64,000 nt of DNA from a virus: UHGV virus genome UHGV-0057547; one strand, 5' to 3'. Position numbers and translations under genes: made by a program. Shown in pieces: positions 7,527-62,708 of this stretch. The first letter of the stretch is position 1, and each line of letters opens with the position of its first letter. The notes beneath the pieces are model-generated. The model did not search any database. It worked only from the letters and a program-made list of their open reading frames with translations, and was not told the DNA's origin.

Positions 7527-7743
7527 TCCTTTCTATTTTATTTACATATATTAAATAAGACAATAAAATTTTATACGATATTTCGAGTAATTTATTTTAC
7601 TTTTAATAAAATTATGAGTATAATATATATAAAATAAATAAAAACAAAGGGGAGATAACAGTTAAAGATAAGTTATAAAATTTTATAAAATACTATTGAT
7701 TTTTATCACTTATCTTAGTATTTTATAATAAAGAGGTGATAAA

Positions 7744-12200: not shown

Positions 12201-14543
12201 TTATCCATAGACAATTACTACACCTAACCATTCTGTGGTATAAGTGAAAATAAACTCATATGTTTTATTAGCTGAAATTGTTGGAATATTTCCATTTTGC
12301 CACTTACAAGTTGGTAATGTTAAAGTTAAATCTGCTGTTGTACTAAAGAATAAATGAATTTTTGTAAAAGAAGTAACTGCTGGTAATGTAATTTCAGTAC
12401 CATTTACGATAGTAGCAGTTTGATATTTGTCTGTTGTTAATGATAAAGTAGTACCTGATATATTAGTAGTTACTAGAGTATTATTAATTTTATCGTCTAA
12501 GTATTTCTTAGTAACTACATCCATATCATCAGTAGGATTTTTACCTACAGTTAATTTACCTGCATACCAAGCATTACCTTGCCAATCTAAAGTGTGTGCA
12601 TTTGACCTTTTAGCATCACCAGCACCATTACCTACTATATGAGCATATTTATTAGCAGTATCTTCTATATTATATTTACCTTGTACATGTTGATATTTAG
12701 AAGAAGCTTTAGTATTATTACCTTCTGCATGTGAAGATTCACCTGAAGCTGTTGTCGTAGAGCCTTCTGCATGTGAACCATAATTACCTGAAGCTGTTGT
12801 ATTATTACCTTCTGCATGTGAACCATAACTACCTGAAGCTGTTGTATTATTACCTTCTGCATGCGGACCATAATCACCTGAAGCCTTTGAAGACCATCCT
12901 TCTGCATGTGAAGAATAACCTGAAGCCTTTGAAGACCATCCTTCTGCATGTGAACAATCACCTGAAGCTTCTACATCTTCTCCCGTAGTAAAACTATTTT
13001 CTCCTACTGTAGTCCCTTCTTTTCTTCCTAAACTTACACTTCCTGTAAATACTGGATTATTTGTAGTAGCATATCCATTCAAACTTTGATGTTCTGTTAA
13101 ATATTGACTATGTGTATGTGAAGTTACATCACCAGTTAATTTAGCTTCTATTTCTGCTTTAGTTATATCACTATTTTTCTGTGCTGTACTTGGTGCATGA
13201 GCTGCTTGACTATGTGTATAAGCAGCATCATAATTAGATTTTAAAGCATTAGTTAAGTCATTAGTAGATAAACCTTTACCTGTTTCTTTTTTAACGAAAT
13301 TTGAGGTATCAACAGTTGTTCCTCCTGAACCTTTATTTGCATCGAAGTATTTCTTAGTAACTACATCCATATCATCAGTAGGTTCTTTACCTACAGTTAA
13401 TTTACCTGCATACCAAGCATTACCTTGCCAATCTAAGGTATGGGCATTGGAATTTTTACCATCCTCACCATTACCAACTATATGTGCATAAGTACCATTT
13501 AAGTCTTCTATATTATACTTACCTTGCACGTGTTGATTTTGAGAAGAAGCAATAGTACTAGCGCCTTCTGCGTGAGAATTTTCTCCCGAAGCTGTTGTAC
13601 AATTACCTTCGGCATGAGAACAATATGCTGAAGCAGTCGTACTATCACCTTCGGCATGCGAAGATTCACCTGAAGCTGTTGTATATTTACCTTCTGAGTG
13701 AGAATTTTCTCCTGAAGCAGTCGTACTATCGCCTTCTGCATGTGAATAATAATTTGAAGCAGTTGTAGAACTGCCTTCAGCATGAGAAGCAACACCACTA
13801 GCTATTGTATTACTACCTTCAGCATGTGAACCATAATCACCTGAGGCAGTTGTACCTTCACCTTCTGTATGTGAACCATTACCTGAAGCAGTTGTATCAC
13901 TACCTTCTGCATGTGAATAATCGCCTGAAGCTATTGTCATAGAGCCTTCAGCATGTGAATAATCGCCTGAAGCTGTTGTCATAGAGCCTTCAGCATGTGA
14001 ATTCATACCTGAGGCAGTTGTACCTTCACCTTCTGCATGTGAACAATCACCTGAAGCTTCTACATGCATACCTATAGCACTACTTCCTGCTCCTATATCT
14101 CCTACTCTTCCTAAACTTATACTATTTTGTAATACTAAATCAGTTTCTAAATATTTACTATCTAAATATTTAACTTCTTCTTCGTAAATAACTAAATCAG
14201 TAAAAGTATTAGTAGTAATATCATTTTTACCTAGTTCAATAAGTAACATTATATTTGTTAAATCCTCAAATGCTTGTATACTATAATTGCCAATACTACA
14301 TACAATACAATTACCAATTTCTTCACTTACTAATAAAGTACATAATTTTTTACTACCTAAGAATTCTATATAATATCTTCTATCTTTATTAATAGAAACA
14401 TTATTTACAGTAATATTATCATTTAATTTTATATCACTAGCAGGTACAGTAACTAATACTTTACTAGAAATAGTTTTTATTACATTATTATCATTGTTAT
14501 TTCCATTGGTTTTATCTTCTCTAATAAACCCCATTAAATTCAT
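12201..14543 (-). CDS. Tail fibre / receptor-binding protein with two tandem SHAEG-repeat beta-helix modules
   Basis: About 25 copies of x-SHAEG-xxTTASG-xx; duplicated module ending NAHTLDWQGNAWYAGKLTVGK-PTDDMDVVTKKY. Confidence 0.55.
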   Translation of the reverse strand: MNLMGFIREDKTNGNNNDNNVIKTISSKVLVTVPASDIKLNDNITVNNVSINKDRRYYIEFLGSKKLCTLLVSEEIGNCIVCSIGNYSIQAFEDLTNIMLLIELGKNDITTNTFTDLVIYEEEVKYLDSKYLETDLVLQNSISLGRVGDIGAGSSAIGMHVEASGDCSHAEGEGTTASGMNSHAEGSMTTASGDYSHAEGSMTIASGDYSHAEGSDTTASGNGSHTEGEGTTASGDYGSHAEGSNTIASGVASHAEGSSTTASNYYSHAEGDSTTASGENSHSEGKYTTASGESSHAEGDSTTASAYCSHAEGNCTTASGENSHAEGASTIASSQNQHVQGKYNIEDLNGTYAHIVGNGEDGKNSNAHTLDWQGNAWYAGKLTVGKEPTDDMDVVTKKYFDANKGSGGTTVDTSNFVKKETGKGLSTNDLTNALKSNYDAAYTHSQAAHAPSTAQKNSDITKAEIEAKLTGDVTSHTHSQYLTEHQSLNGYATTNNPVFTGSVSLGRKEGTTVGENSFTTGEDVEASGDCSHAEGWSSKASGYSSHAEGWSSKASGDYGPHAEGNNTTASGSYGSHAEGNNTTASGNYGSHAEGSTTTASGESSHAEGNNTKASSKYQHVQGKYNIEDTANKYAHIVGNGAGDAKRSNAHTLDWQGNAWYAGKLTVGKNPTDDMDVVTKKYLDDKINNTLVTTNISGTTLSLTTDKYQTATIVNGTEITLPAVTSFTKIHLFFSTTADLTLTLPTCKWQNGNIPTISANKTYEFIFTYTTEWLGVVIVYG

Positions 14544-29452: not shown

Positions 29453-30006
29453 ATGGCAAAAGCAAAAAAAGAAATAAAGAAAATAATATGTACTACATGT
29501 GGAAGAGAATTGCCTGAAAAAGACTTTGGTAAATCTTATTCATTTAGAGATAAGTTAAATGGAAGATTACCGATTTGCAAAGACTGTTGTGCTAGTTTAT
29601 ATGATAAGTTAATGGTAGATTATCAAGATGAAATGAAGGCGTTATATAGATTTTGTATGATATTAGATTTATATTTTTCTAAAGATACAGTTATGGGATT
29701 AATAAGTAAGAATAGAAATTCTGAAAGTAATCTTGGATATCTATATGTATTAAAATATAATTTGGTACAATATAAAAATAAAACATTTCAAGATACAACA
29801 GCATTTGTAAATATATTTGGTATGACAGAAGAAGAGATGGAAGAAGCATTATATTTAAATACTGAAAAAACAAAAGAAGAAATAGAAAGAAAAACTAAGA
29901 AAATAGTTACTCCGGAAGTAATCAAACGTTGGGGCTCGGATTTAGAGCTAGACGATTATATTTTTCTTGAAGATAGATATAACCAAATGCTTCTTGCTTA
30001 TGATGT
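29453..30006 (+). CDS. Terminase small subunit-like protein, exon 1 (zinc-ribbon N-terminus)
   Basis: Position directly upstream of the terminase large subunit gene; ORF reads through into the intron for 6 codons; P1 pairing gatgt/gcgtc defines the 5' splice site. Confidence 0.4.
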
Positions 30007-31417
30007 AATTATGCGTCCTATGTAAAGAAATTTGCATAGAAAATCTCCTTAATTGCAGGTAATTCCTAAAGCCTTACACCAAAACGGAAGGTGAAAACCT
30101 AAACGGCAACGGTACGAAAGTAGAAAAAACGTAAGGATGGATATAAGGTTAAATCCTAAGTATCCAAACATATTTATATATGTTAAAATGGATGTTCATG
30201 CAGGTAAGATTCTAAATTAAATTATTTTAAATACTTAACTTTTAATAAGATAAATTGTATAATATAAATAAAGAGAGGTGATAAAATGGCAAAAAAGAAA
30301 TCTCATGAGGAGTTTGTTAATGAATTAAATATAAAAAATCCTAATATAAAAGTATTGAATAAATATGTAAATGTGTCTACGAAAATAATGGTTAAATGTA
30401 TAATTTGTGGAAATGAATGGATGGCAATACCTGGTAGTTTATTAAATGGAACTGGGTGTCCAAAATGTGCAAATAAAAATAAATCAAATAAACAAAGAAA
30501 GACAAAAGAACAATTTATAGAAGAGATGAAAATTATTAATCCTAATGTTAAAATAATCGGTGATTATATTAATAATCATACGAAGATAAAATGTGAATGT
30601 TTAATATGTGGGAATATATATTTTATGATACCTAAAAATTTAAGGAAAGGGCAAAATTGTCCTGAATGTGCTATGAAACAAAGAGTATCTAAAAAATCTA
30701 AAATTCATGAACAATTTATAATTGAATTAAATGATATAAATAAAAATATTAAAGTATCAAATAAATATATAAATGCAAAAACAATCATGGAATGTTCTTG
30801 TGATATTTGTGGTCATAAATGGAAATCTAATGCTGATAATTTATTAAGAGGTCATGGGTGTCCAAAGTGTGCAATAGAAAATAGTAGAGGTGAAAATAAC
30901 CATAATTGGAATCCTAATCTTACACAAGAAGATAGAGAAAATAAAAGAAATTATATGGAATATAAAGAATGGAGAAAAAATTGTTATGAACGAGATGATT
31001 ATACTTGTCAAGTTACAGGGAAAAGAGGAGTAGAATTATGCGTACATCATTTATATTCTTATAATAAATATTATTGTTTAAGAACTGCATTAGATAATGG
31101 TATAACAGTATCTAAAGAAATACATGAATTGTTTCATAAAATATATGGACGAGGAGATAACACATTAGAACAATGGGAAGAATTTATTAAAAGTTTAGAA
31201 TAATTTAATATGAATCAAAGCTCAACGACTATTCCGTAAGGAAGTAAAACCACAAGCTATTGGTGGAAGAAAAGGGAGATACCTTAACAGATAATGCTGA
31301 AGGTGAAGAAATAGTCTACTCTCATATGAAAGTATGAGCAGTTTTGTATATATACAAAACGGATTAAGTGTAGCGAACTTAATTGAATATAAAGGATAAG
31401 AATCCCTCATCCCTTTG
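30007..31417 (+). mobile_element. Group I intron carrying an HNH-type homing-endonuclease ORF
   Basis: P1 and P2 hairpin ctatg..catag; conserved 5' core; P7 elements caacGACTA ... gaaATAGTCTa; 3' end inferred from frame (ccctttg|g). Confidence 0.6.
30286..31203 (+). CDS. Intron-encoded homing endonuclease: three zinc-ribbon repeat modules plus C-terminal HNH domain
   Basis: Repeats CxxC...GxGCPKC; C-terminal CQVTG...CVHHL..YN...DNG motif; own promoter and RBS. Confidence 0.6.
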   Translation: MAKKKSHEEFVNELNIKNPNIKVLNKYVNVSTKIMVKCIICGNEWMAIPGSLLNGTGCPKCANKNKSNKQRKTKEQFIEEMKIINPNVKIIGDYINNHTKIKCECLICGNIYFMIPKNLRKGQNCPECAMKQRVSKKSKIHEQFIIELNDINKNIKVSNKYINAKTIMECSCDICGHKWKSNADNLLRGHGCPKCAIENSRGENNHNWNPNLTQEDRENKRNYMEYKEWRKNCYERDDYTCQVTGKRGVELCVHHLYSYNKYYCLRTALDNGITVSKEIHELFHKIYGRGDNTLEQWEEFIKSLE

Positions 31418-31696
31418 GTCATATCAAGAAATATGTATGAATTATTTACTCCTTAGAAAAGATAGAGGAAATGTTCAACTTCAAAAAAGTATTCAAGAAA
31501 TTAATAGTAAATTACAAGCTGACTGTAAAATGAAATTATCACAAATAGATAATGATGATGATGACAATGCTTGTTTTGGGAAATTTATAGATAGAATAGA
31601 ATTATATGAACCATGTAATAAAAAGTTACCATTTTTTGAAGATATAGATGGAATAAGACAATACTTAAAACGATGGAAACAAAAAGCCACGACTGT
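31418..31696 (+). CDS. Terminase small subunit-like protein, exon 2
   Basis: Only open frame; phase matches exon 1 (2-nt carry-over); P1 ctgt|at with IGS atatgcag. Confidence 0.4.
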
Positions 31697-32088
31697 ATAG
31701 AAATATGCAGTGGACACAGATTTAATTGCAGGTAATTCCTAAAGCCTTACACCAAAACGGAAGGTGAAAACCTAAACGGCAACGGTACGAAAGTAGAAAA
31801 AACGTAAGGATGGATATAAGGTTAAATCCTAAGTATCCAAACATATTTATATATGTTAAAATGGGTGTTCATGCAGGTAAGATTCTAAGTGATAATTTTA
31901 TATCATATGAATAAACTTCAACGACTAGAATGCAAATTCGTAGGGTGTAAGCGATTGACACTCGAAAAGGTCTGCCCTTAACAGGTAATGCTGAAGGTGA
32001 AGAAATAGTCTAGTCACTCTAGGAAACTAGGTGCTTAGAATTAACTAAGGTTTATAGTGTAGCGACTATAAGTAAATATTAACGTTTG
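31697..32088 (+). mobile_element. ORF-less group I intron (3' boundary 32088 or up to 32110)
   Basis: 5' half nearly identical to 30031-30285; contains caacGACTAg and ATAGTCTAg P7 strands; ends aacgtttg. Confidence 0.55.
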
Positions 32089-32110
32089 TTTTGCCTTTTG
32101 CGAAGCAGTG

Positions 32111-32259
32111 GAAATTAGCTAAAAATGATGTTTTAGGGGGAGAAGAAGGAATAGAAGATTATGAAGATGTAGATAAAATATACAATGAACAAAATAAGAA
32201 TAATACCGAAGTAGAAAATGAAGTAGAAGATGAAGTAGGTGAGGAAAACAATGACAAGT
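32111..32259 (+). CDS. Terminase small subunit-like protein, exon 3 (acidic C-terminus); start uncertain
   Basis: 53-codon open frame ending in a stop that overlaps the ATG of the next gene; boundary chosen by frame. Confidence 0.3.
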
Positions 32260-32401
32260 AGTCCAAAAGAAAATGTTGAAAAAGAAGAAATACTTTCCGA
32301 TGATGTCATGAAAAGTCCTCATAGAAAAAGAAGGAATTTATCCCAAAGAAAAAAAGATAGATTAAATGAAGGTATGAAAATATGGACTGCATTTTATAGG
32401 T
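32251..32401 (+). CDS. terL: Terminase large subunit, exon A
   Basis: ATG overlapping upstream stop; exon ends ttttatagg-t with P1 pairing to IGS gctta. Confidence 0.5.
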
Positions 32402-32747
32402 TAAATATTTAGCTTATTTTATTAGGTAACTAATAATCTAAACCCTTTGAATTGCTGGAAAGGACTTAGAGCCTATTGAACTACAACGTGACTAGAAATG
32501 GTGAGCGTGAATGTTTAAAAATCAATAGGATTGTTTAATCAGCAGGTAAGATTCTAAATTGCTATAAACAATATGAATAAACTTCAACGACTAGAGTTTA
32601 AACTCGTAGGCTACAAGTTATTGGTAGTCGAAGCGGAGGGCATCCTTTCATAGGATGAAGATATAGTCTGTTCTTATATGAAAATATAAGTAGTTCTTTA
32701 TTTAATAAAGAACAGTATGTATGTAGCGAATACATATGAACATTTAG
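32402..32747 (+). mobile_element. ORF-less group I intron
   Basis: Conserved 5' core (aattgctggaaagg...cagcaggtaagattctaa) directly joined to 3' core (aataaacttcaacgactag...gatatagtctg). Confidence 0.6.
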
Positions 32748-32863: not shown

Positions 32864-34032
32864 AAATAGATATGCTCCATTATATAGAAATATATAATTA
32901 AAAATCAATCAAAATCGGTAAAAGTCTAAGTTTAATATTTACATTTTTTAGGAATATAAGTATAATATATAAAAGGGGTGAGATTAAATGGGTAAAATAA
33001 TAAATAAATATGATAGAATAGGTGAAACATCGATATCAAAAGAAGGATATGAAATGAAAATAATTGAATATATTGATGCAAGACATATTCTAATAGAATT
33101 TCAAGATGAACATAAAACTAGGTTAATGTGTCAATATGGTGACTTTAAATGTAGAAAAAATATTAAAAATCCATATCATCCAGCAGTATATAAAATAGGG
33201 TATTTGGGACAAGGTAAATATAATAAAAAAAATTATCAACGTATATATTGGACATGGAAAGATATGCTGAGAAGATGTTATAGTGAAGAGTACTTAAAAA
33301 GAGAACCTTCTTATAGAGGCTGTTGTGTTTGTGAAGAATGGCATAATTTCCAAAACTTTGCTAAATGGTATGAAGAAAATTATTATGAAGTTGAGAATCA
33401 AAGAATGCATTTAGATAAAGATATACTTGTAAAAATGAATAAAACATATAGTCCACAAACTTGTATATTTGTTCCACAAATAATTAATAGTTTATTTATA
33501 ACATCTAAGGCTATAAGAGGAGAATATCCTATTGGCGTTTCAAGAAAACAGAATAAATTAATTGTTCAAATTAATAAATATGATGAAAATATGAAAAAAT
33601 CAAAATATACAATGGTAAAAAAATTTGAAATAGAAGAAGTAAATGAAGCATTTTTTTGCTATAAAACAGAAAAAGAAAATGAAATAAAGAAAAGAGCCGA
33701 TTTATTTAAAGAATATATTCCAAAAAAATTGTATAATGCATTATATAAATATAAAATTGAAATAACAGATTAAATATGATAATACCGAGGTAAGATAGAA
33801 AATTAAAAAGTTCTATCCACTGTAGAGCATAGAGATTGAACCTTTGTAAGAACTATTATACAATAGTTCTTTTTTAATTGCAAAGAATAAAATATCTCCA
33901 AGAGTGATTGACACCTTACTATTAAGTTAAAGGTGAAAATATATGCCATACTGAGCTAGAATTGACTAGCTGATGAAAATGAGGGAAACCTCCAGAGGTT
34001 AAGATAAAAAACTTAACGTTAATAATGAATAG
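32864..34032 (+). mobile_element. Type-2 (T-family) intron carrying an HNH endonuclease ORF; 3' part is element T1
   Basis: P1 ggggt/gctcc, P2 attatatagaaatatataat, caaaatcggt block, internal promoter, ORF, then about 270-nt T1 element. Confidence 0.5.
32988..33773 (+). CDS. Intron-encoded HNH-family homing endonuclease (Bacillus-phage type: WTW-DML-RRC...CCVCEEW..F..F..W...LDKDIL motif)
   Basis: Diagnostic conserved motif set read directly; own promoter and RBS aaaagggg. Confidence 0.55.
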   Translation: MGKIINKYDRIGETSISKEGYEMKIIEYIDARHILIEFQDEHKTRLMCQYGDFKCRKNIKNPYHPAVYKIGYLGQGKYNKKNYQRIYWTWKDMLRRCYSEEYLKREPSYRGCCVCEEWHNFQNFAKWYEENYYEVENQRMHLDKDILVKMNKTYSPQTCIFVPQIINSLFITSKAIRGEYPIGVSRKQNKLIVQINKYDENMKKSKYTMVKKFEIEEVNEAFFCYKTEKENEIKKRADLFKEYIPKKLYNALYKYKIEITD

Positions 34033-34135
34033 TTATCGAAATCGTATATGACAGCAATATTCCTTTGTTGTAAAGCAATATTATATCCAAATAGTTTAAT
34101 TGTAGTTTCTTGTTCAACTAAGGAGCAAGCGAGAT
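34033..34135 (+). CDS. terL: Terminase large subunit, exon e34 (P-loop ..LSKSYMTAIF.. and LIVVSCSTKEQAR Q-motif)
   Basis: Joins exon X in phase to give ICARGLSKSY Walker A-like loop; ends gcgagat with IGS gtctc. Confidence 0.5.
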
Positions 34136-35567
34136 ATAATGTCTCCTATATTAAGTGATTAGTATAGCAAATCTTTTGAATTGCTGGAAACTCCTAAAGC
34201 TCAATTCACTACAACGTAAGGTTAAATCCTAAGCGTGAATGTTACGAAAGTAGAAAAAAGTAATTGAGATGGTATAAGGTTAAATCCTAAGTACTTTTAC
34301 AATGGACAATCAGCAGGTAAGATTTATATTTATTTTACTTTACTTTTAATAATTAATTTCGTATAATTTAAGTAAATGGAGGTGAAATATTATGGCATGG
34401 AAATATGAAGATGTGAAAAAGTATGTAGAATCATTTGGTTATAAATTAATATCAAAAGAATATAAGACTTGTAAAGATAAACTTCATTTAATGTGTCCTA
34501 ATGAAAGTGATTTTATTGTAAGATTTGATAATTTTAAAAATGCTAAACAACGTTGTAAATGTGATAAATGTAAAGGTAGAAATCCAAGAATGTTTTCTTA
34601 TGAATATGTAAAAGAATACATAGAAAAAGAAGGGTATAAATTAATATCAAAAGAATACAATGGAAATAAAAAACGTATAGAATTAGAATGCCCAAATGGT
34701 CATAAATGGAAAGTAAGATTTACTGATTTTAAAAATGGAAGAAGATGTTATTATTGTTCTTGTTGTTATAAACCTACCATTGGAGAAATTAGAATGAGAT
34801 TATCAAAATATGGTTATACATTGTTATCTGAAGAATATAAAAATGCAAATGAAAAAATTAATGTAAAATGCCCTAATGGTCATAAATATCCTACTACATA
34901 TCATAATTTTGATAATGGTAAAAGATGTCCATACTGTTATAATAAATATAGTAAAGGTGAGTATAGACTTATAAATTTATTTAATAATTATAAAATAAAC
35001 TATAAACATCAATATATTTTTAATGATTGTAGAGATATAAATCCTTTGCCATTTGATTTTTATTTATATGATTATAATTGTTGTGTAGAATTTGATGGAG
35101 AAGGGCATTATGAACCTAGAAATTGGAATGGAGCTTCAGATGAAAAAGCAATAGAAACATATAAAATAACGGTATTACATGATAAAATTAAAACACAATA
35201 TTGTAAGGATAATAGCGTAAAACTCATAAGAATACCATATTGGGAATTTAATAATATAGAAAACATTATTTGTCAAGAATTAAATATTAAAAGAAAACAA
35301 AGAAGAAAAGGTAATAAATTAAAATAAATATGAATAAACTTCAACGACTAAGTATCCTAGTAGTCTAGGTAGAGGAAGAGGTCTTATATTAATAAGATTG
35401 TGATATAGTCTGCTCTCATGCGAAAGCATGAGCAGTTCATAAAAGAACGGATAGAATAGTAACGATATTCTATTGAACATAAGGAATCTTATAAAGGAGA
35501 AGATAGCTAAAGAGCTATGTTCTCAATCGAAAATGTTAAATAGAGAAATTGCTAAAGTAGTCACTGG
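34136..35567 (+). mobile_element. Group I intron carrying a Zn-ribbon/DUF559 homing-endonuclease ORF (3' end approximate)
   Basis: P1 gagat/gtctc, P2 ctatattaagtgattagtatag; conserved 5' and 3' cores flanking the ORF. Confidence 0.55.
34392..35327 (+). CDS. Homing endonuclease, Zn-ribbon repeat modules plus DUF559/Vsr-like PD-(D/E)xK nuclease domain
   Basis: Three modules YEYVKEYIE..GYKLISKEY...CPNGH...F..FKNG.RC; C-terminal PLPFDFYL...VEFDGEGHYE...KLIRIPYWEF. Confidence 0.6.
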   Translation: MAWKYEDVKKYVESFGYKLISKEYKTCKDKLHLMCPNESDFIVRFDNFKNAKQRCKCDKCKGRNPRMFSYEYVKEYIEKEGYKLISKEYNGNKKRIELECPNGHKWKVRFTDFKNGRRCYYCSCCYKPTIGEIRMRLSKYGYTLLSEEYKNANEKINVKCPNGHKYPTTYHNFDNGKRCPYCYNKYSKGEYRLINLFNNYKINYKHQYIFNDCRDINPLPFDFYLYDYNCCVEFDGEGHYEPRNWNGASDEKAIETYKITVLHDKIKTQYCKDNSVKLIRIPYWEFNNIENIICQELNIKRKQRRKGNKLK

Positions 35568-35631
35568 TACTAATGAAACAGTGGTTATCTTTAACAATGG
35601 TAGTACCATTCAAGTTTAATGCTTTGCACAT
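35568..35631 (+). CDS. terL: Terminase large subunit, exon e35 (boundaries approximate)
   Basis: Only open frame; phases fit e34 (1-nt) and e38 (2-nt carry-over); P1 gcacat/gtgtgt. Confidence 0.35.
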
Positions 35632-35877
35632 TGAGTAATTAGTGTGTATAACCGATTGAATTGCTTGTAAATCCTAAAGCTAACTAAACTACAACGTAAC
35701 CTGAAAAGGTAAGCGTGAATGTAGCGAAAGCAGAAAAAATTAGTTAGATGGTATATGGTTAAATCCTAAGTACTTTTACAATGGAAGTCTAGCAGGGAAG
35801 ATTCTAAAATTATTTAAATTAAATATTTGACTTTTAATAATATAAGTTGTATAATATAAATAAATGGAGGTGATAAT

Positions 35878-36834
35878 ATGTCAAAAATAATGTGGGATGA
35901 AAAATCAATAAAAAAATTTGTTGAGCAATATAATCATGAATTCATTGAAATTATAGAATTTAATAACATAAGAAGTTTAATAAAAATTAAATGTAAAAAT
36001 AAAAAACACAAACCATTTGAAATAAAATTTACATCATTTAGACAAACTATGCTAAAAAATGGAAATTCTTGCAAAGAATGTAAAAAAGAAGCAAAAATGT
36101 TAAAAAGAGAAGATGTAGAAAACCTAATTAGAGAAAGAGGACTTATTTGGCTAGAGGGAGAGTATATAAGTAATGATACAAAAAATTTATTAGTATGGTG
36201 TGGAAATATTAATCATGAACCATTTTTAACAAGTCAAAATTATATATTATGTAATAATGGTAATAGTTGCAAAAAATGTGGTATAGAAAATAATGCAAAT
36301 AACAAAAGACTTTCATATGAGTATGTATATAACTATATAAAAAATGAGGGTGATGAACTATTATCAAAAACTTATGTAAACAATTCACAAAATTTAAAAA
36401 TTAAATGTGGTAAATGTAATAATGTATTTGAAACTTCATTTGGGCACTATCAAAATAAAGATAGAAGATGCTTATGTAAAGCTCAATCAAGAGGAGAATA
36501 TGAAATTAAACGAATATTTGATAAATATAATTTAATTGAAAATGTAGATTATGAATGTCAAAAAAAATACGAAGGATTAATTGGGGTTGGTGGTAGAAAA
36601 CTTTCTTATGATTTCTATATCAATAATACATTAATAGAATATCAAGGTTCTTATCATGATGGAACTGCTAGAAAACAAACAGATGAAGGATATGAGATAC
36701 AAAAGGAACATGATAAAAGAAAAAAAGATTATGCTAAAAATAATAACATTAATTTATTAGAGATATGGTATTGGGACTTTAATAATATAGAAAATATACT
36801 TATAGAAAATTTTAATTTAAATAATAATGAATAA
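35878..36834 (+). CDS. Homing endonuclease, Zn-ribbon repeats plus DUF559/Vsr-like domain
   Basis: Same modular architecture as 34392..35327; C-terminal LSYDFYI...IEYQGSYHD...NLLEIWYWDF. Confidence 0.55.
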   Translation: MSKIMWDEKSIKKFVEQYNHEFIEIIEFNNIRSLIKIKCKNKKHKPFEIKFTSFRQTMLKNGNSCKECKKEAKMLKREDVENLIRERGLIWLEGEYISNDTKNLLVWCGNINHEPFLTSQNYILCNNGNSCKKCGIENNANNKRLSYEYVYNYIKNEGDELLSKTYVNNSQNLKIKCGKCNNVFETSFGHYQNKDRRCLCKAQSRGEYEIKRIFDKYNLIENVDYECQKKYEGLIGVGGRKLSYDFYINNTLIEYQGSYHDGTARKQTDEGYEIQKEHDKRKKDYAKNNNINLLEIWYWDFNNIENILIENFNLNNNE

Positions 36835-37086
36835 CCTTCAACGAACAAGTATCCTAGTAGTCTAGGTAGTGGTCGGTATCCTTAGTAAAGGATAATGATA
36901 TGTTCTGCTCTCATGTGAAAGCATGAGCAGTTTATGTGATTAATTAAAATTCACAAATAAACGGTATAAGGTATAACGAACCTTATATGAACACAAATGC
37001 AGTAAACGCTTCTCAAAATACAAGAGGTAAATTTTTCATATCACTTTACATTTTTTAATAATTAGAGTATAATATAAACAAAGGGG

Positions 37087-37956
37087 GTGATTGAATTGAA
37101 ATGGACTAAGGATATGGAGCAATACTTAATTGATAATTATAATAAATTAACTATTGAAGAATTAGCTAAAAATATAGGAGTAACAAAATCCTCAATAATA
37201 AATAAAGCTTTTTCATTAAAAATAACAAATAATGTTAAAAATAAAGATAGAGGAAATATTAATATATTTAAAAATATAAATTCAGAAGAAAGTGCTTATT
37301 GGTTAGGATTTATATATGCTGATGGTTATATAGTTAAAAGTGAAAATGATAAAAAACATCATAATTATGAATTAGGTATAGAACTTCAAGAATCTGATAT
37401 TTCTCATTTGAAAAAATTTAATAAAATATTTAATGATTATTATAAAATAAAAACAAGAATCAGAAAAATGGATTCATTGGATATTTTAAATGGAAATGAA
37501 GTTTCAAATAGATTAAATAAAACTTGTTTGATAAGAATATATAATAAAGAAATAGTTAATGATTTAATAAAAAATAATATTGTTCAAAATAAAACTAATT
37601 CAGATATATTTCCTATTATAGATGATGACAATATGTTTTTACATTTTTTAAGAGGATATATTGATGGCGATGGTTCTTATGTTGTTGATAGTAAAAATAG
37701 ATACATAATATCAATTCAAGGTAATAATAAAAAATGTTTTGAATTTATATCTAATAAGTTATTAACAAGTTTTAATATTAATTCATATATAACAAAAGAT
37801 AAAACAGGTTGGAAATTAAATATAAGAAAAAAAGATGATGTTTTAAAATTAATAGATTTAATGTTTAATAATTCAAATATTTATTTAGATAGAAAATATG
37901 AGAAAGTAAAAGATATGAAAAAAGCCGTCTTTAATAGAAATATTAAAGATAATTAG
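37087..37956 (+). CDS. LAGLIDADG homing endonuclease (double-motif, single-chain)
   Basis: Two LAGLIDADG motifs: LGFIYADGYI and LRGYIDGDGS; GTG start after RBS aaaggggg. Confidence 0.7.
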   Translation: MIELKWTKDMEQYLIDNYNKLTIEELAKNIGVTKSSIINKAFSLKITNNVKNKDRGNINIFKNINSEESAYWLGFIYADGYIVKSENDKKHHNYELGIELQESDISHLKKFNKIFNDYYKIKTRIRKMDSLDILNGNEVSNRLNKTCLIRIYNKEIVNDLIKNNIVQNKTNSDIFPIIDDDNMFLHFLRGYIDGDGSYVVDSKNRYIISIQGNNKKCFEFISNKLLTSFNINSYITKDKTGWKLNIRKKDDVLKLIDLMFNNSNIYLDRKYEKVKDMKKAVFNRNIKDN

Positions 37957-38280
37957 AGAACAAAATCGGTCATAGTAAATCGTAAGATTAAGCTGATAAG
38001 AGAGCCTAAGTCCTTATAGGATATGGTAATACCGAGGTAAGATAGAAAATTAAAAAGTTCTATCCACCGTAACGCATAGAGATTGAACCTTTGTGAGAAC
38101 TATTATACAATAGTTCTTTTTTAATTACAAAGAATAAAATATCTCCAAGAGTGTTCTCCACCTTATCATTAAGTTGAAGGTGAAAATATATGCTGGACTG
38201 GGTATGAATTGACATACCATAATGCGAGGAAACTCCTAGAACTAGAGGATAAAAAGCCTTTAGGATAACAAAACGTTAAG

Positions 38281-38325
38281 ATGCCATGTACTCGTGGTTG
38301 ATGAGTATAGAATGATACAAGGAGT
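38281..38325 (+). CDS. terL: Terminase large subunit, exon e38 (Walker B ..CHVLVVDEYRMIQG)
   Basis: Open frame; ends ggagt paired to IGS gctcc of the next intron. Confidence 0.45.
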
Positions 38326-39865
38326 AATATATAGCTCCCTATGTTTATAAAAAGCATAGAAAAACTCTTTAATTGCTGGAAACTCCTAAAGTCCTATAAA
38401 CTACAACATGATTAGAAATAATGAGTGTGAATGTTACGAAAGTAGAAAAAATTATAGGAATGGTATATGGTTAAATCCTAAGTACTTTTACAATGGACAA
38501 TCAGCAGGTAAGATTTATATTTATTTTACTTTACTTTTAATAATTAATTTTGTATAATTTAAGTAAATGGAGGTGATAAAATGTTAAAATATAATAATGA
38601 TTATATTATCAATTATATAAATGAAAATTATAAAAATTTTAAAATAGTAAGTATAGATGGTAATGGAAAGGAAGCTATTGTAACTTTATGGTGTGGCGTT
38701 AGTGGTCATAAACATATACAATGCACATTTGCTAATCTTTTATATAAAGATAGTTTTCACTGTAGAGAATGTAAAAAAGATGATAAGATAAACGAAATAA
38801 AAAAGATTATAGGTGATGAATATCAAATAATCTCAATAGATTATATTAGTAATGATTGGATAAGAAGTAGAGCTATATTATGGTGTGGAATAGAAGGACA
38901 TGAATATATTGATGTATCTTTTAAATCAATAATAAATGGAAATATTATTGGATGTAAATTATGTAGAAAAAATAAACATATATTAAAAATAAAAGAAAAT
39001 GTAGAAAAAGTTAATAAAAAATTAATAGAAGTAAAAAAATATAATGAAAAAGATTATCACAAATCAAGAATAATAGTATCTTGTGGTAATGAAAAACATG
39101 AATTAATAGAGACTTCTTTAAATAAAATTATAAATTCAAACGTTAAATGTAAGGATTGCATAAAAGAAGATAATATTAATAAAATGATGCTATATATAAA
39201 TTCTACTCAATACAAATTTAATAAAATTGTAAAATATTGTGAATCAGATTATATAAAAAGTATGGTAGAAATAACATGTCCAAAAGATGAAACCCACATA
39301 TTTACAATGAGATTTTCTAATTTTAAATATGAAGGTAAAAGATGTCCTCATTGTGGTATGACTTATGGTGAACAAGAAGTTGCAAATGTATTAAAAAGAT
39401 ACAATATAAAATATAAATTTCAATATAAATATAAAGATTGTAGATTTATAAATCCTCTTCCTTTTGATTTTTATTTACCTGATTATAACATATTAATTGA
39501 ATACGATGGTAAACAACATTATGAATCAGTAGATTTATTTGGTGGAGAAAAAGGTTTTAAATATACAAAACAAAATGATGGAATAAAAAATCAATACTGT
39601 AAGAATAATAATATAAAATTAATAAGGATACCATATTGGTGTTTTAATAATATAGAAGAAATATTAATTAAAGAATTAAAAGTAAACATAAATAAATATG
39701 AATAAACTTCAACGACTAGAACGTAAGTTCGTAGGGTGTAAGTGATTGACACTCGAAATGGGAGTTACCTAATAATAGGTAGTGATATAGTCTAGTCTCA
39801 TATGAAAGTATGAGCAGTTCATAAGAGAACGTACATAACGTAGCGAATTATGTAGAATATAACGG
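38326..39865 (+). mobile_element. Group I intron carrying a Zn-ribbon/DUF559 homing-endonuclease ORF
   Basis: P1 ggagt/gctcc, P2 ctatgtttataaaaagcatag, conserved cores, P7 GACTA/TAGTC; ends ...gaatataacgg. Confidence 0.6.
38581..39705 (+). CDS. Homing endonuclease, Zn-ribbon repeats plus DUF559/Vsr-like domain
   Basis: Four Cys-pair modules; C-terminal PLPFDFYLPDYNILIEYDGKQHYE...NNIKLIRIPYWCF. Confidence 0.6.
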   Translation: MLKYNNDYIINYINENYKNFKIVSIDGNGKEAIVTLWCGVSGHKHIQCTFANLLYKDSFHCRECKKDDKINEIKKIIGDEYQIISIDYISNDWIRSRAILWCGIEGHEYIDVSFKSIINGNIIGCKLCRKNKHILKIKENVEKVNKKLIEVKKYNEKDYHKSRIIVSCGNEKHELIETSLNKIINSNVKCKDCIKEDNINKMMLYINSTQYKFNKIVKYCESDYIKSMVEITCPKDETHIFTMRFSNFKYEGKRCPHCGMTYGEQEVANVLKRYNIKYKFQYKYKDCRFINPLPFDFYLPDYNILIEYDGKQHYESVDLFGGEKGFKYTKQNDGIKNQYCKNNNIKLIRIPYWCFNNIEEILIKELKVNINKYE

Positions 39866-41465: not shown

Positions 41466-42364
41466 GTGAGTGAAGAAAAAAAGCAAAAGAAGTTGTTTGC
41501 AGAAACTTCTGTAGCTAACAATGCACAAAAATATACAACTAAACCAGTTAAATATAGTGCTAGTGAAATAATGGGATTCTTAGAAGACCCACAAGCAAAT
41601 GCACTTAACTTACAAAAAGCTAGTATTTGGTTGTATTATAATAGTGGTATATACAATAGAATAATTAATAACTATGCTGGTATGAATATCTATGATTTAT
41701 ATTTATATCCAACTACAATTAGTAAATTTTCTAAATCAAAAAGAAAAATAACACCTGATAAATTATATAAAGATTATTTAGATATAAGTAATTTATTAGA
41801 AAGAATTAGTTGGAAATCAAATTATCGTAATATAGGAGTTAACCTTATGATACAAGGAGAAGTTTTCTTATATGATGTATCTGATAATCAAGGTACTATA
41901 TTAAAAGAAATACCAACTGAAATATGTAAAATATGTAAGGTTATAAATGATAATTTATATAAATATGCAATCAATGTAAATAAATTAGGTACAGCAGAAT
42001 ATTATTCAATGATGCCTTTAGGATTACAAAGATTATATGACCAACATAAAGCAGGTTCACTATCACCTGAACAATATTTAGGAACTGCTGGTTCAGGTTA
42101 TGTAATAGTAGATGACCCTGAAGCAATATGTTTAAGTTTAAATAATATGACTTCAACAAAATCTGTTCCAACTTTATCTTATTTATTTCCTTCATTATTA
42201 AGATTAATGGAAGAAGAAGAAAATGAAGTTGTGGAAAATAAAGCTAATAATTTAAAAATGATACATATGCAATATGATGTAGATGAAGAAGGCGAATCAA
42301 GAATAGCTGAAGCTGACCTTATAAAAATGCATAATTCAGCTAAAGCCAATTTACCAGTAGGAGT
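41466..42364 (+). CDS. Portal protein, exon 1
   Basis: Gene order after terL, size and acidic C-terminus of the spliced product; exon ends ggagt (2-nt carry-over). Confidence 0.5.
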
Positions 42365-43679
42365 AACATATAGCTCCCTATGTTTATAAAAAGCATAGAA
42401 AACTCTTTTAATTGCTGGAAACTCCTAAAGCTCAATTCACTAAAACATAATCTGAAAATGATAAGTGTGAATGTTACGAAAGTAGAAAAAAGTAATTGAG
42501 ATTACCCAAGGTTAAATCCTAAAGGTGAATGAATGGACAATCAGCAACCAAGATTTTAAGTTTAATTCATTGATTTTTAATATAATATAAAATAAAGTGA
42601 GGTAATTAATATAGCATTAAAATGGACTGAAGAAAAAATAATAGAATTTATAAATAATGAAAATTATATAGTAAAAAAAATAATAAGTGGAATTGGAAAA
42701 GAAACGAGATTATTGGTATGGTGTGGTAATCCTAATCATAAACCATATAAAGTTATTTTTAATAATTTTAAAAGAGGAACAAGATGTCAGTCTTGTTATG
42801 ATGAAAGAAGAAGAAAATGGACTGATGAAATTATTAAAGAATATTTAGAAAGTTATAAATATAAACTAATAGAAATTATAAAATCTAAAGGCGTTCAATC
42901 TATTGTAAAAATAAAATGTCCTAAATGTGGATATGTATATACTATTAAATTTGATACATTTAGAAATGGTCGTAGATGTATGCAATGTTTTCTTAAAGAA
43001 AATAGAATTAGTGAAGAAGAAATAAAAAAAATAATAAAAGATAATAAAGATATATTAATAGATATTGAGTATCATAGTTTAGATAGTATTTTATATTTAT
43101 ATTGTAATAAATGTAAAAAAAATTATCCTATTACATTTTATTGGTATTTAAAAGGCGGAAGATGCAAGTTTTGCAAAGAATCAAGAGGGGCTAGAAAAAT
43201 AAGAGAATATTTAGAAAATAAACAATATAATTTTAAACAAGAATTTAGAATTAAAGAATGTAGATATAAATTTCCATTACCATTTGATTTTATGGTTACT
43301 ATAAATGATAATATTATTTTAATAGAATTCGATGGGTTAGAACATTATGAACCTATTGAGTATTTTGGAGGTATAGTTAAATTTAATGAAAGAAAAAGAA
43401 ATGATAATATTAAAAATCAATATTGTAAAGATAATAATATAAAACTTATAAGGATTCCATATTGGGAATATGACAACATAGATGAAATATTAAATAAAGA
43501 ATTAAACTTAAAATAAGGTTCAACGACTAGAGCGTAAGCTCGTAGAGTGTAAGTGATTGACACTCGAAATGGAGAGTATCTAATAATAGGTAGTGATATA
43601 GTCTAGTCTCATATGAAAGTATGAGCAGTTCATAAGAGAACGGATTAGGAGTAGCGACCCTAATTGAATACAACGTTTG
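42365..43679 (+). mobile_element. Group I intron carrying a Zn-ribbon/DUF559 homing-endonuclease ORF
   Basis: P1 ggagt/gctcc; cores as in the other type-1 introns; 3' end aacgtttg fixed by reading frame. Confidence 0.6.
42713..43516 (+). CDS. Homing endonuclease, Zn-ribbon repeats plus DUF559/Vsr-like domain; conserved N-terminal region extends to an ATA at 42611 behind a good RBS (possible start-codon mutation)
   Basis: TTG at 42713 is the first canonical start; upstream in-frame IALKWTEEKIIEF matches paralog N-termini. Confidence 0.5.
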   Translation: MVWCGNPNHKPYKVIFNNFKRGTRCQSCYDERRRKWTDEIIKEYLESYKYKLIEIIKSKGVQSIVKIKCPKCGYVYTIKFDTFRNGRRCMQCFLKENRISEEEIKKIIKDNKDILIDIEYHSLDSILYLYCNKCKKNYPITFYWYLKGGRCKFCKESRGARKIREYLENKQYNFKQEFRIKECRYKFPLPFDFMVTINDNIILIEFDGLEHYEPIEYFGGIVKFNERKRNDNIKNQYCKDNNIKLIRIPYWEYDNIDEILNKELNLK

Positions 43680-44523: not shown

Positions 44524-45098
44524 TTGAAAGGAGGTGTAATTATGAATAACAAACTTAGATTACCTATTAAAAGATTTGAAAGTACAGATGAAGTTTTAGT
44601 TAATACAAACTTTAAAAAAGTTAAAATATACATTATGCATACAGGTGAAAACCTTAATGGTTCTGTATTTTCAGTAGATAGTATAAATGATTCAATAGAT
44701 ACACTTGCAAACATTCCAATATTGGCATTTGTTGAAAAAACTGATGGACAAGATAACAAAGATTTTGCAGGACATGAAACTGATTTAGATATATTTACAG
44801 ATGAAGATGGAACAATTAAAGTAAGAGAATACTATAAAGAAGTACCTATTGGAGTAATACCTGAAAGTAATGATTATTTCTTTGAAGAAAAAGATGGAGA
44901 AACATACTTAGGGTGTTATGGTTACATATGGAAATGTTATTCTAATGATGCTTATGACATATTAGAAGAAGACCAAGAAAAAGAAGTCTCTATGGAAATT
45001 TATATAAATAATTGTTCTTATGATAGAAAACAAAGATGTAATATTAATAAATTTGAATTTCTTGGAGTTACAGTGTTAGGTGCTAAATACCCAGGAGT
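44524..45098 (+). CDS. Prohead protease/scaffold-like protein, exon 1
   Basis: Position between portal and capsid genes; exon ends ggagt paired to gctcc. Confidence 0.4.
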
Positions 45099-45491
45099 GA
45101 TTAGCTCCCTATATGGAGTGATTCATATAGCAAACTCTCTGAATTGCTTGTAAATCCTAAAGCTAACTAAACTACAACGTGATTGGAAACAATGGGCGTG
45201 AATGTGGCGAAAGCAGAAAAAATTAGTTAGATGGTATATGGTTAAATCCTAAGTACTTTTACAATGGAAGTCTAGCAGGTAAGATTCTAAATTACTATAA
45301 GTGATATGAATAAACTTCAACGACTATTGAAATAATTGTAAGAACCTTATTACAATTAAAGTAAAGTACATTCAAGTGAATGGAAGTAGAGAGTGTCTTA
45401 TTTAATTAATGTAAGATAATGATATAGTCTCAACGTTTAGCGAAAGCTAAAGAAGTTCATAAGAGAACTGCATAAGAATAACGAACTTATG
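45099..45491 (+). mobile_element. ORF-less group I intron (3' boundary within 45483-45509)
   Basis: P1 ggagt/gctcc, P2 ctatatggagtgattcatatag, complete 5' and 3' cores without ORF. Confidence 0.55.
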
Positions 45492-46707
45492 TGAAGATAT
45501 TGCTATGGGGGAAGATTGTGTACTTAGTATGAATTTTTCTAAAGAAGATAGTGAATATAAAGAATATTTATCTTCTGTTGAAAAATTAAATAAATTATTA
45601 AAATGTCAAAGAGAGGAGGGATTAAGTGTGGATGTAAATAAAGAAACTTCTACTGTTGAAAACAAAGAAGAATTTGCTGAAGAAAACAAAGATGAAGAAG
45701 TTTGTCCTGAATGTGGTGAAAATCCTTGTGTATGCAAAAAAGAAAATCATGCAGTTAATGATGATGAAGAAGATAAAGCAGATGACAAAAAAGATGATGA
45801 TAAAGAAGACGATAAAGACAAAGAAGATGAATCTTGTAAAAAGAAAAATCATGCAACTGAAGATAAAGCAGATGATGATAAAAAAGACGATAAAGCAGAT
45901 GACGAGGAAGACGACGACAAAGATGATGATAAATCAGATGAAGAAGATGACAAAGATAAAGACAAAGAAGATGAATCTTGCAAAAAGAAAAATCATACAG
46001 TAGAAGATGACAAAGCAGACTTTGGACTTTCTTTAAATAATACATTTAAAGCTATAAGAAAACAATTAGAATCTTACACTTATGAATATGTGAGCTATTG
46101 GGGTGACACTTATACTTGGAGAAAATATTACGTAGTAGAATTAATCCCTGAAGATTCTGTTGTTGTTATAGAAGATGAAGAAGAAAATGAATTCTATGGA
46201 GTAACTTATTCTATAAATAATGATGATGTTACTTTAGATTTGGATAATAAAGCATTATATATTCAAGAATGGAGACCTAAAGAAACTAGTTCTGCTAGAT
46301 TTGAAAATACTGATAAAAAAGAAAAATATACTGCTAAAGATGAAATGTATCAAGCAGTTGGAAAAGAATTAAAAGAACTTAGACAATTTAAAGCTGATAT
46401 AGAAGCTCAAGAAGAAAAGGCTCAATTCGATGAAAAAGTTAATGCTATCTTATCACAATTTGAATTCAATGAAGAAGAAACTTCTGATTTAGTAGAAAAA
46501 GTTTATAACAAATCAATTAATTTAGATATGTTTGAAACTTGCTTATTTGCTTTAGAAGCTAAAAAGAATAGAGCAGAAAAAGAAAAATTTGCTAAAATGG
46601 AAAAAGAAAACAGTTTAAATATAGTTGATTCTAAAAAAGAAGAACCAGCAAAACCAAAATCAAGATTTGATTATCTATTAAAAGAATTTGGAAACAAAAA
46701 TAAATAA
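45492..46707 (+). CDS. Prohead protease/scaffold-like protein, exon 2 (acidic tandem repeats, coiled-coil C-terminus)
   Basis: Three repeats of KEDESCKKKNH.(T/V)EDKADD; scaffold-like composition. Confidence 0.4.
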
Positions 46708-47287: not shown

Positions 47288-47737
47288 ATGAGACGAATGT
47301 CAGAATTAAATATAACTGATGTAAGAGATATGGCTTACAGTCTATATAAAGGTAAAACTGCTAATTTCGATGCAGAATCTGCAAATGAAGCTATAAAAAA
47401 TATAATACTTAAAACAGCTGGATGTGAAGATGGTTGGGATATGTATAAATTCATGGATAACAAATACAAAGTATTTGCTATAATGAGAGAAATATTAACT
47501 CCAGTTGTAGCTGAAAATGTTTTAGCTAGATTTGAATCTTGGGTAGACATAGAAGATATAGCTTTAGGTGATACTAAAGACTTTGAAGTTATGAACCAAG
47601 AATTATTTGAAATAGGATATGTAGCTGATGGTACTTCTGAATTAAGAAGACAAAACTTAACTCATGGTAAAATTACTATGACTGGTTTCCAATTAGGTGC
47701 TAAATTATATACTGAATTTGATGACTTTAGAAGGGGT
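47288..47737 (+). CDS. Major capsid protein, exon 1
   Basis: Position and size; exon ends ggggt paired to IGS gcccc (compensatory change relative to ggagt/gctcc). Confidence 0.5.
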
Positions 47738-53107: not shown

Positions 53108-53253
53108 ATGGCTACACTATTTGCTATAAAAGATGCAATAGATTTAAAAATAACTAAAAAAGGTGAATCAGCAGTTTTCACTACAATAGACTACTTAAAT
53201 GAATGTCAAATACAAATGGACTCAGAACAAGTATATGCTCTTAAAAAAGGAGT
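53108..53253 (+). CDS. Major tail protein-like, exon 1
   Basis: Exon ends ggagt paired to gctcc; spliced product ends in an Ig-like-looking C-terminal exon. Confidence 0.4.
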
Positions 53254-54639: not shown

Positions 54640-55026
54640 AATGAACTGTAACTAGTACAGCGTATGTAAAGAAATTTACATAGGACACAACCTTAAAACC
54701 AGTAACTCCTAAAGCTCAACAACTACAACAAAGGATAGAATCAGAAACCTTTGTGAATGTGAGGAAACTCTGAAACAATAGTTGAGATGATATATGGCGA
54801 GAGCCTAAGTATTGTAACAATGGATGTTTGGTCGCCAAACTTAGAAATAAGAAGGTCAAACGACTATGATTTGAAAGAATCATAAAGCCTCAAGCGAATG
54901 GAGGAAGAAATGGGTTGCCCCTAACAGATAATGCTGAGGGTGAAGAAATAGTCTAGTCACTCTAGGAAACTAGGTGCTTAGAATTGACTAAGGTTTATAA
55001 GTTGCGATTATAAATAAATATTAACG
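54640..55026 (+). mobile_element. ORF-less group I intron directly downstream of the previous intron, separated by a putative micro-exon within ~54611-54650
   Basis: P2-like hairpin atgtaaagaaatttacat, 5' core aactcctaaagctcaacaactacaac...tagttgagatgatatatgg (ctcaaca/tagttgag covariation), P7 caaacgactatg...gaaatagtctag. Confidence 0.5.
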
Positions 55027-55381
55027 TCAAGTAATGGATGAAGACTTCTTATGTATGATGCTTGGTGCTACTAAAGGTGCAGATGGTAAAATATCTGTAA
55101 CATCTTCAGTTCCAAACCAAAGTTATACAGCAGAAGGTACTTTCAGAACTACTTCATTAAATGGAGACCAATACAAAAAAATAAAATTCTACAACTTAAA
55201 AGCACAAGTTTCAGCTGACTTAACTTTATCTGCTTCTGATGTTTCTGAATTCTCATTAGTATTAGATATAATGGCTGACGATGCTGGTAAAATATTAGAT
55301 ATAGAAAACACTGCTGGTGGAGTATCTGCTGGATTTAATGAACCTGAAATTGTTTCTATAAAAGCTAAAGCTGATAAATAA
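55027..55381 (+). CDS. Major tail protein-like, terminal exon
   Basis: Open frame begins immediately after ...attaacg of the intron. Confidence 0.4.
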
Positions 55382-62695: not shown

Positions 62696-62708
62696 AAATT
62701 ACGCTGGT
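62696..62708 (+). CDS. Tape measure protein 13-nt micro-exon (aaattacgctggt) between two introns
   Basis: Flanked upstream by T4 3' end and downstream by P1 loop/IGS gccag complementary to its ctggt end; frame depends on exact splice sites. Confidence 0.35.

Follow-up and report, generated by a model that had tools for sequence, protein, structure and literature searches.

The 64,000-nucleotide (nt) stretch of the virus genome UHGV-0057547 analyzed here, referred to in its full length as the window, belongs to an SPbeta-like, AT-rich phage (ca. 25% G+C) with genes on the + strand from ca. 22 kilobases (kb) on. Adjoining the gene of the large terminase (terL) there is a yonG-like gene, putatively a packaging or small-terminase-like gene, that is interrupted by two insertions, I1 and I2, separated by a 282-nt exon (Table 1). 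Both are predicted group I introns, and they share a block of 167 nt that is nearly identical in the two copies. For comparison we used seven related assemblies, L001 and L002 (both short-read contigs from Logan), L006 (IMG/VR contig 152729), L007 (contig 159628), L008 (contig 163643), L022 (OJKW01000015) and L023 (OIGD01000310), which outside the blocks are 94-100% identical to the window. All the sequences are metagenome assemblies.

The open reading frame (ORF) at 29453 matches phrog_3314, the Pfam domain YonG_N (PF27269) was found on its homologues, and distant relatives of the gene open the packaging module in SPbeta-like and phiCD211-like phages. The exon junctions, AYD^DKNPSS (30004^31395, where ^ marks the junction) and KRW^FVLPFA (31676^32085), were obtained from uninterrupted homologues and intron-less alleles (L001, L006 and L008 for I1, and L008 for I2). 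Precise removal of the introns restores the conserved frame, and the predicted spliced product, of 336 amino acids (aa), aligns without gaps to the uninterrupted homologues; in exon 3, the motif F-V-x-P-F-A aligns with these homologues and with the DNA of L008. As the exons are in phase 0, skipping of exon 2 (from the 5' site of I1 to the 3' site of I2) would leave the frame intact and shorten YonG by 94 residues. In L001 and L002, gene callers turn the host gene into truncated proteins of 285 aa and 196 aa, which run into stop codons of the introns. The nearest YonG relatives in genome collections (L024-L028, ca. 50-55% identity) come from metagenome-assembled genomes labelled Bacilli bacterium and Candidatus Scatovivens (Clostridia), and thus the host of the phage is probably an uncultured low-G+C gut Bacillota.

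Table 1. Features of the yonG-like gene and of the other introns in the window (positions are those of the window unless a contig is named; introns and their parts are predicted)
Feature	Position	Strand	Remarks
Exon 1, yonG-like gene	29453-30004	+	184 codons (552 nt), phase 0; phrog_3314, E = 1e-27; upstream of terL
I1, group I (IA2-like)	30005-31394	+	1390 nt, ORF in P6 loop; 30006-31395 equally compatible
I1-specific 5' segment	30005-30048	+	contains P1 3' strand/guide, P2 and P3 5' strand
I1 P1 3' strand/guide	30013-30017	+	GCGUC
I1 P2 hairpin	30018-30039	+	GAAA loop
I1 P3 5' strand	30043-30048	+	AUCUCC; partner GGGAGAU at ~31275
Shared block, copy 1	30049-30215	+	166/167 vs 31722-31888
I1 ORF promoter-like site and Shine-Dalgarno	30235-30285	+	TTAACT-17-TATAAT, GAGAGGTG; promoter scan
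I1 ORF (putative homing endonuclease)	30286-31203	+	305 aa; three zinc-ribbon (CapR/DUF4379) repeats and C-terminal HNH nuclease
I1 3' half	31204-31394	+	P6 3' strand, J6/7-P7, P7.1/7.2, P3 3' strand, P8, J8/7-P7', P9, terminal hairpin
Exon 2	31395-31676	+	94 codons (282 nt); both ends in phase 0
I2, group I (IA2-like)	31677-32084	+	408 nt, no ORF
I2-specific 5' segment	31677-31721	+	AAACAAA, guide CCA, P2 hairpin, P3 5' strand
I2 P2 hairpin	31692-31711	+	
Shared block, copy 2 (P4-P5-P6 domain)	31722-31888	+	
I2 P6a hairpin, ORF-less allele	31889-31906	+	GUGAUA...UAUCAU
I2 3' half	31907-32084	+	P6', P7, P7.1/7.2, P3', P8, P7', P9, terminal hairpin
Exon 3	32085-32261	+	177 nt, phase 0; FVLPFAKQW... 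to stop codon
I3	32402-32747		full IA2-like core
I4	32864-34032		other type, core after ORF
I5	34135-35484		full IA2-like core
I6	~35616-36999		full IA2-like core
I7	~37000-38281		other type, core after ORF; LAGLIDADG ORF
I8	~38325-39865		full IA2-like core
I9	near 40.0-40.1 kb		other type, core after ORF
I10	42364-43675		full IA2-like core
I11	45098-45502		full IA2-like core
I12	47737-49070		full IA2-like core; capsid gene
I13	~53253-54596		full IA2-like core
I14	54649-55026		full IA2-like core
I15	~61666-62700		other type, core after ORF
I16	~62709-63089		full IA2-like core
Intron-ORF promoter copies	30227-30283, 34331-34387, 35805-35877, 38522-38578, 47927-47999, 53446-53502		
5' sites of the subfamily with U as first inserted base	34134^34135, 42363^42364, 45097^45098, 47736^47737; L008 6482^6483		

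The motifs P4, P4'/P6, J6/7-P7 and J8/7-P7' are present in this order in both introns, and in I1 a motif scan found all of P4, P4'/P6, J6/7-P7 and P7'. The match of I1 to the Rfam family Intron_gpI is limited to its 3' half (31179-31338, 25 bits, E = 0.03, for a gathering score of 50) because the core is split by the 1-kb ORF. I2 matches the same family (RF00028) at 31687-32033, at relaxed threshold, with 45.7 bits (E = 2e-8), slightly under the gathering score, and its orthologue in L022 reaches 50.3 bits. The subgroup, IA2, was assigned by inspection only, from a 38-nt insertion between P7 and P3' in I2 (Rfam alignment), with a similar one in I3, and from the location of the ORF in the P6 loop. 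Helices were taken from the Rfam alignment of I2 together with the motifs common to all the introns of the family, and the sub-hairpins from a minimum-free-energy fold of I2 without the pseudoknotted core, used for local hairpins only. The last base is a G in both introns (31394 and 32084), and I1 fits both splice-site rules (GAU^GU...AAAG^G). The Rfam alignment takes the hairpin CUAUGU...GCAUAG as P1, with 5' splice sites at 30023 and 31696. We rejected this option and consider the hairpin to be P2, since it is present in the introns of the portal, capsid and other genes, and intron-less alleles put the junctions 19-20 nt upstream. Nor do these 19-20 nt seem to be exon remnants carried with the intron, as an indel between the window and L002 shifts the frame and the bases are still conserved. 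The I1 ORF codes for a putative homing endonuclease, similar to phrog_559 ("HNH endonuclease", E = 9e-45) and to Pfam CapR (E = 5e-17), with CapR and DUF4379 above the cut-offs and a weak match to HNH_2 (16.9 bits, under the cut-off of 21). Its promoter-like site belongs to a repeated phage promoter family (D10/D11).

The shared block (TTAATTGCAGG...AAGATTCTAA) is identical at 166 of 167 positions, the sole difference being position 144 (A in I1 and G in I2), and its two copies start 1673 nt apart. It is the most identical long repeat of the window by self-BLAST, and within the window it is confined to I1 and I2. An earlier note on this DNA had described the 5' cores of the two introns as almost base-for-base identical, and this near-identity is real; the 77-nt string that it gave occurs exactly twice (30072-30148 and 31745-31821), with no mismatches and no occurrences expected by chance. 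The limits proposed there for the I1 copy (30031-30285) include the block and are too wide on both sides of it, with 30031-30048 corresponding to P2/P3, loosely similar in I2, and 30216-30285 to the promoter and leader of the HNH ORF, absent from I2. The copy near 31697 (I2) does lack an ORF, its sole frame of at least 40 aa being a spurious one on the minus strand inside the repeat. In a pairwise identity matrix of the 11 introns with a complete core, the 5' cores of I1 and I2 share 99% identity and all other pairs 52-92%. The other copies that the note grouped as highly similar ("type-1") are similar indeed, although at 76-92% mutual identity they are not nearly identical, and no other pair of intron cores in the window exceeds 92%.

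The limits of the block are structural, since it is exactly the P4-P5-P6 domain of the ribozyme. It comprises J3/4, P4, P5 with a branched extension (two hairpins capped by GAAA), P5', P4' and the 5' strand of P6, and it starts at the last pair of P3 and has its end within the 5' strand of P6. All its helices have both strands inside the 167 nt, except P6, whose 3' strand is outside. Beyond these borders, P1-P3 and P7-P9 of the two introns are 50-67% identical, with 67% for the 3' cores. P3 covaries between introns; it is formed by AUCUCCU/GGGAGAU in I1 and by CAGAUU/GGUCUG in I2, without cross-complementarity. In I2, the 5' strand preceding the block is CAGAU, the completing U is the first base of the block, and the partner GGUCUG is located at ca. 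31968. Given that a single domain is shared and that P3 can pair only within each intron, there was no duplication of a whole intron. I1 and I2 are two separate predicted self-splicing group I introns, each with its own site, guide, P2, P3 and P7-P9.

The distribution in the related assemblies leads to the same picture. I1 is precisely absent from L001, L006, L007 and L008, and I2 is precisely absent from L008 (AGATGG^TTCGTT). L001 has I2, and its contig ends inside the block; L006 and L007 have I2 with an ORF for a 322-aa endonuclease in P6; L023 has I1 and an ORF-bearing I2; and L022 has I1 and an ORF-less I2. L002 contains an orthologue of I1 at the same site, with the same P1-P2-P3, in a gene whose protein is 78% identical. 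The I1-specific 5' segment is 100% conserved in L022 and L023, and is kept in L002 with a compensated pair in P2, while that of I2 is conserved (45/45) in L006, L007, L022 and L023. The specific 5' pattern of I1 was absent from the viral contigs searched, and a search with its 3'-specific pattern retrieved only distant introns (76%). This pattern of presence and absence in relatives indicates that I1 and I2 are established residents of their sites, independent of each other. A 99% identity over 167 nt at two sites of one gene could be taken for a recent duplication, the view of the earlier note, or for a transposition of one intron to a new site (by ectopic homing or reverse splicing), with the differing parts replaced later. 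However, the identity ends sharply at P3 and P6, with 50-67% in the remainder; three assemblies (L001, L006 and L007) have I2 without I1; L002 has I1 at the same site in a host gene that has diverged to 78%; and in L022 both introns are present with blocks that are only 79% identical. We therefore consider this origin very unlikely. What holds of it is a recent transfer of sequence inside the genome, and what was transferred is neither an intron nor an intron half. There is no need to invoke reverse splicing either, since the conserved core sequences on both sides of the block are sufficient for a transfer by homologous recombination.

The comparison of the blocks among genomes is more informative. 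Within a genome, the blocks of I1 and I2 are identical in L023 (167/167), differ at one base in the window and are 79% identical (138/175) in L022, where there are several substitutions and a different distal hairpin. The blocks of I2 in the window and L022 are 88% identical. Position 62 is a C in both copies of the window and in I1 of L022, and a T in both copies of L023 and in I2 of L006, L007 and L022; this site tracks the genome rather than the intron. At position 144, a G is found only in I2 of the window and I2 of L022. Taken together, the two positions form a patchwork of tracts in both directions. At least three block types coexist, i.e., type A, a shorter form in I1 of L022 and the type of I2 of L022. 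The last is also carried by I17, an ORF-less intron of a tail gene (L005 3683-4093, contig 163643); at the equivalent site of the window, near 55.12 kb, there is no intron. The presence of the same block family in I17, ca. 23 kb away and in another gene, indicates that the exchange is not limited to neighboring introns. One stem reads CCUUAC/GUAAGG in one block type and CUCUAC/GUAGAG in another, and this double compensation supports the predicted fold.

In every group I intron P4-P6 matters for function, and an extreme purifying selection on this scaffold, with no exchange at all, might also keep two copies alike. To this explanation we give almost no credit, since L022 contradicts it. The coexisting block types, at least three, differ by features that include a swapped distal hairpin and the doubly compensated stem, and identity to the block is 63-74% in the other introns of the family. 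I1 and I2 could also have received the block independently of each other from a third donor, which may have been a different intron of the genome or a relative infecting the same cell. The block family does exist in a third intron 23 kb off (contig 163643), whose type is matched by the I2 block of L022, and by self-BLAST the 3' half of I2 is itself a mosaic, with pieces that have their closest matches in two other introns (92% identity between 31905-31970 and 39696-39761, and 90% between 31964-32085 and 54907-55027). But within the window the block is found only in I1 and I2, and the genome-wise variation at positions 62 and 144 is most simply explained by direct exchange between them. A third donor seems unlikely, and it would be a variant of the same mechanism more than a true alternative.

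The identity of the blocks, their structural limits, the independent presence and absence of the introns, the unconverted blocks of L022 and the genome-linked site are direct observations. Paralogues that are more alike within a genome than orthologues between genomes, together with the patchwork of tracts, are the signature of gene conversion. We think, with a probability of roughly 0.8, that the P4-P5-P6 domain has been kept nearly identical by repeated non-reciprocal homologous recombination between intron copies, at the DNA level. We infer that crossovers would take place in short sequences conserved in all the introns of the family, UUAAUUGC(A/U)GG on the left and GCAGGUAAGAUU on the right, and that selection would be behind the sharp limits. 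If a tract extended farther left, the intron would receive a new 5' strand of P3 while the partner strand, located over 250 nt downstream, stayed the same, and the host gene would no longer be spliced. Because longer leftward tracts would leave P3 unpaired, only those inside the autonomous domain should survive. Endonuclease cuts and mixed infections by genomes with unlike intron content are plausible triggers of the exchange.

Several points weigh against gene conversion as we propose it. The direction of the transfer and the number of events are unpolarised, as L002 ends 45 nt into the block and there is no outgroup with a complete one. The genome-specific signal rests on two variable sites. 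The splicing of I1 and I2 is a prediction from the DNA, and I2 is without the canonical U·G pair at its 5' splice site. Finally, short-read assemblers of metagenomes break or mis-thread at such repeats, and L001 and L002 end inside the block. A near-identical repeat could then be an artefact, either a consensus or a mis-threaded path through the repeat in a mixed population, and the metagenomic source and the related short-read contigs that terminate within the block fit with this. Yet the same block was recovered in I2 of four independent assemblies and in I1 of two (the window and L023) with identical flanks, the copies of the window differ at one base and hence have not been collapsed, and L022 shows that assemblers do resolve divergent blocks. 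An assembly artefact is thus highly improbable.

The ORFs appear to follow a similar dynamic. At the P6a site of I2, where the window has a short hairpin, L006, L007 and L023 have instead a cassette of 1046 nt with a promoter and an endonuclease ORF (969 nt, 322 aa) of another endonuclease family, located in P6 and with flanks 96-100% identical. The ORF-less I2 had been thought a possible derivative by endonuclease loss. It is not a simple deletion, since the window and L022 have distinct P6a hairpins, with compensated changes between them, and neither is present within the ORF-bearing alleles. Probably, ORF cassettes and P6a hairpins replace each other by the same kind of recombination. In some relatives there is an additional intron, I0, 70 nt upstream of the I1 site (29934^29935 in the window), with an HNH ORF in L007 (6483-7838), without ORF in L008 (6483-6852) and also present in L022. 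In the sampled genomes, the HNH ORF is found in I0 or in I1 but not in the two together, perhaps because homing elements compete at these neighboring sites. The promoter and leader regions of the I0 and I1 ORFs look nearly identical by eye (they were not scored). A recent move of the HNH cassette between I0 and I1 was rejected, as the product of the I1 ORF is only 57% identical to the HNH protein of I0 in L007. In L022 and L023, the I1 product is 97-100% identical.

The 5' splice site of I2 deserves a separate comment. The U-1·G pair at this site is conserved and required for activity (PMC1891724). I2 has a G before the site and an A as its first base (GAUGG^AAAC), its P1 would have only 3 base pairs (UGG/CCA), and it ends in G. 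A helix of 7 base pairs is possible between the AAACAAA that opens the intron and the UUUGUUU with which the 3' exon begins. In I5, I10, I11, I12 and I0 (L007/L008), the guide pairs with exon positions -4 to -1 and covaries with them (GGAG/CUCC, GGGG/CCCC, GAGA/UCUC), and the invariant U in wobble with the guide G is not the last base of the exon but opens the insertion. Judging from reading frames and intron-less alleles, this U has to belong to the intron, as its first base, if a G is the last one, and the exon would then end in G or A. If these introns were cut canonically after the U and also ended in G, the portal, capsid and other genes would be put out of frame. For I11, the homologues without an intron show an alanine at the junction (P-G-A-M), which fits G^CU and not GU^U. 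For I12, all the uninterrupted capsid homologues read FRRGR(V/T/I)D(F/W), supporting FRRG^R, which a cut after U plus a cut after G cannot give; the single intron-less capsid allele reads GGT AGA and would fit a U-ending exon and a C-ending intron. By the same junction test, the lysK intron of phage K is canonical. No annotated splice joins that could calibrate the junction rules were found in the records of Twort, phiIPLA-RODI, DELF3 and Romulus. Whichever the reading, one of the two standard splice-site rules appears to be broken in this predicted subfamily. That I2 and these other introns would splice at a 5' site without the nearly universal U(-1)·G pair is a possibility that we regard as rather doubtful.

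I1 and I2 are part of an extraordinarily dense set of at least 16 insertions within 33 kb (30005-63089), 12 with a full IA2-like core and 4 of another type, that interrupt yonG, terL (at least six), the portal gene, the host gene of I11, and the capsid, tail and tape-measure genes. At its gathering score, Rfam flags only one of them, I3 (32392-32690, 92.8 bits). In the matrix, the 3' cores range from 50 to 87% identity and the two halves disagree, e.g., the identity is 92% (5' core) and 50% (3' core) for I6 and I11, and 77% and 87%, respectively, for I8 and I10. Mosaic introns are thus the general case here. The nuclease domains of the intron ORFs are 31-60% identical (protein) and correlate poorly with the 5' cores. 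It follows that core halves, ORFs and sites have separate histories. The intron ORFs have, inside the ribozyme loop, their own phage promoter-like motif (TTTACTTTTAAT...GTATAAT) and a GGAGGTG ribosome-binding site. The same promoter-like motif is located upstream of ordinary genes at 7588, 14638, 21206, 21260, 27874 and 61702. Elsewhere in the window (12500-14100) there are arrays with a period of 42-45 nt (families D1, D2 and D8) and a G+C content of 34%, versus ca. 25%.

The P4-P6 folding domain of the ribozyme thus behaves as an exchangeable cassette, with limits that appear to be set by the helices that need matched strands, and this links RNA architecture to the outcome of recombination. 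Even in a single phage population, the core of an intron, its ORF and its insertion site have had different histories. On the practical side, both short-read assembly and gene calling break down at repeated intron cores, and close genomes with unlike intron content are good material for the study of homing, intron competition and exon skipping.

Several features of this locus have counterparts in known phages. Phage Twort has a gene with three similar introns and exon skipping (PMC3073962), and as there, several closely related IA2-type introns interrupt one gene here. Among the phage introns in GenBank, the nearest ones belong to Twort-like staphylococcal phages, with 68-73% identity along roughly half of the length; however, the phage described here is SPbeta-like and not a member of the Herelleviridae, the host gene is another one and only one domain is nearly identical. 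In the Bastillevirinae, with 45 introns in 37 genes across the subfamily, the core type is decoupled from the nuclease gene carried, and the dominant product of a two-intron terminase gene lacks the exon in between (PMC11878797). Core and nuclease gene are also decoupled in the window, which by itself contains at least 16 insertions in 33 kb, and exchange at the level of domains was not described in that survey (PMC11878797). I-HmuI and I-BasI are HNH homing endonucleases of introns from SPO1-like and Bastille-like phages (PMC3984707). As in their case, we found a predicted HNH ORF with its own promoter-like site inside the ribozyme loop and related enzymes at neighboring sites, those of I0 and I1, 70 nt apart, with HNH proteins 57% identical. 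Unlike them, the predicted product of the I1 ORF has three N-terminal zinc-ribbon repeats before the C-terminal HNH domain.

The closest parallel is the domain shuffling that Bryk and Belfort reportedly described in 1990 between the td, nrdB and sunY introns of phage T4, where chimeric group I introns are said to have arisen among laboratory recombinants by homologous recombination at short conserved core elements. As in the T4 introns, the 5' and 3' halves around the ORF loop act here as separable units. In contrast to the laboratory recombinants of T4, which involved introns of different genes, here the pattern is found in natural genomes and between introns 282 nt of exon apart, is confined to P4-P6 and appears to recur, i.e., a case of concerted evolution. 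What the yonG-like gene shows is, in this sense, most probably a known process, intron domain shuffling, seen in natural genomes, and not a newly duplicated intron.

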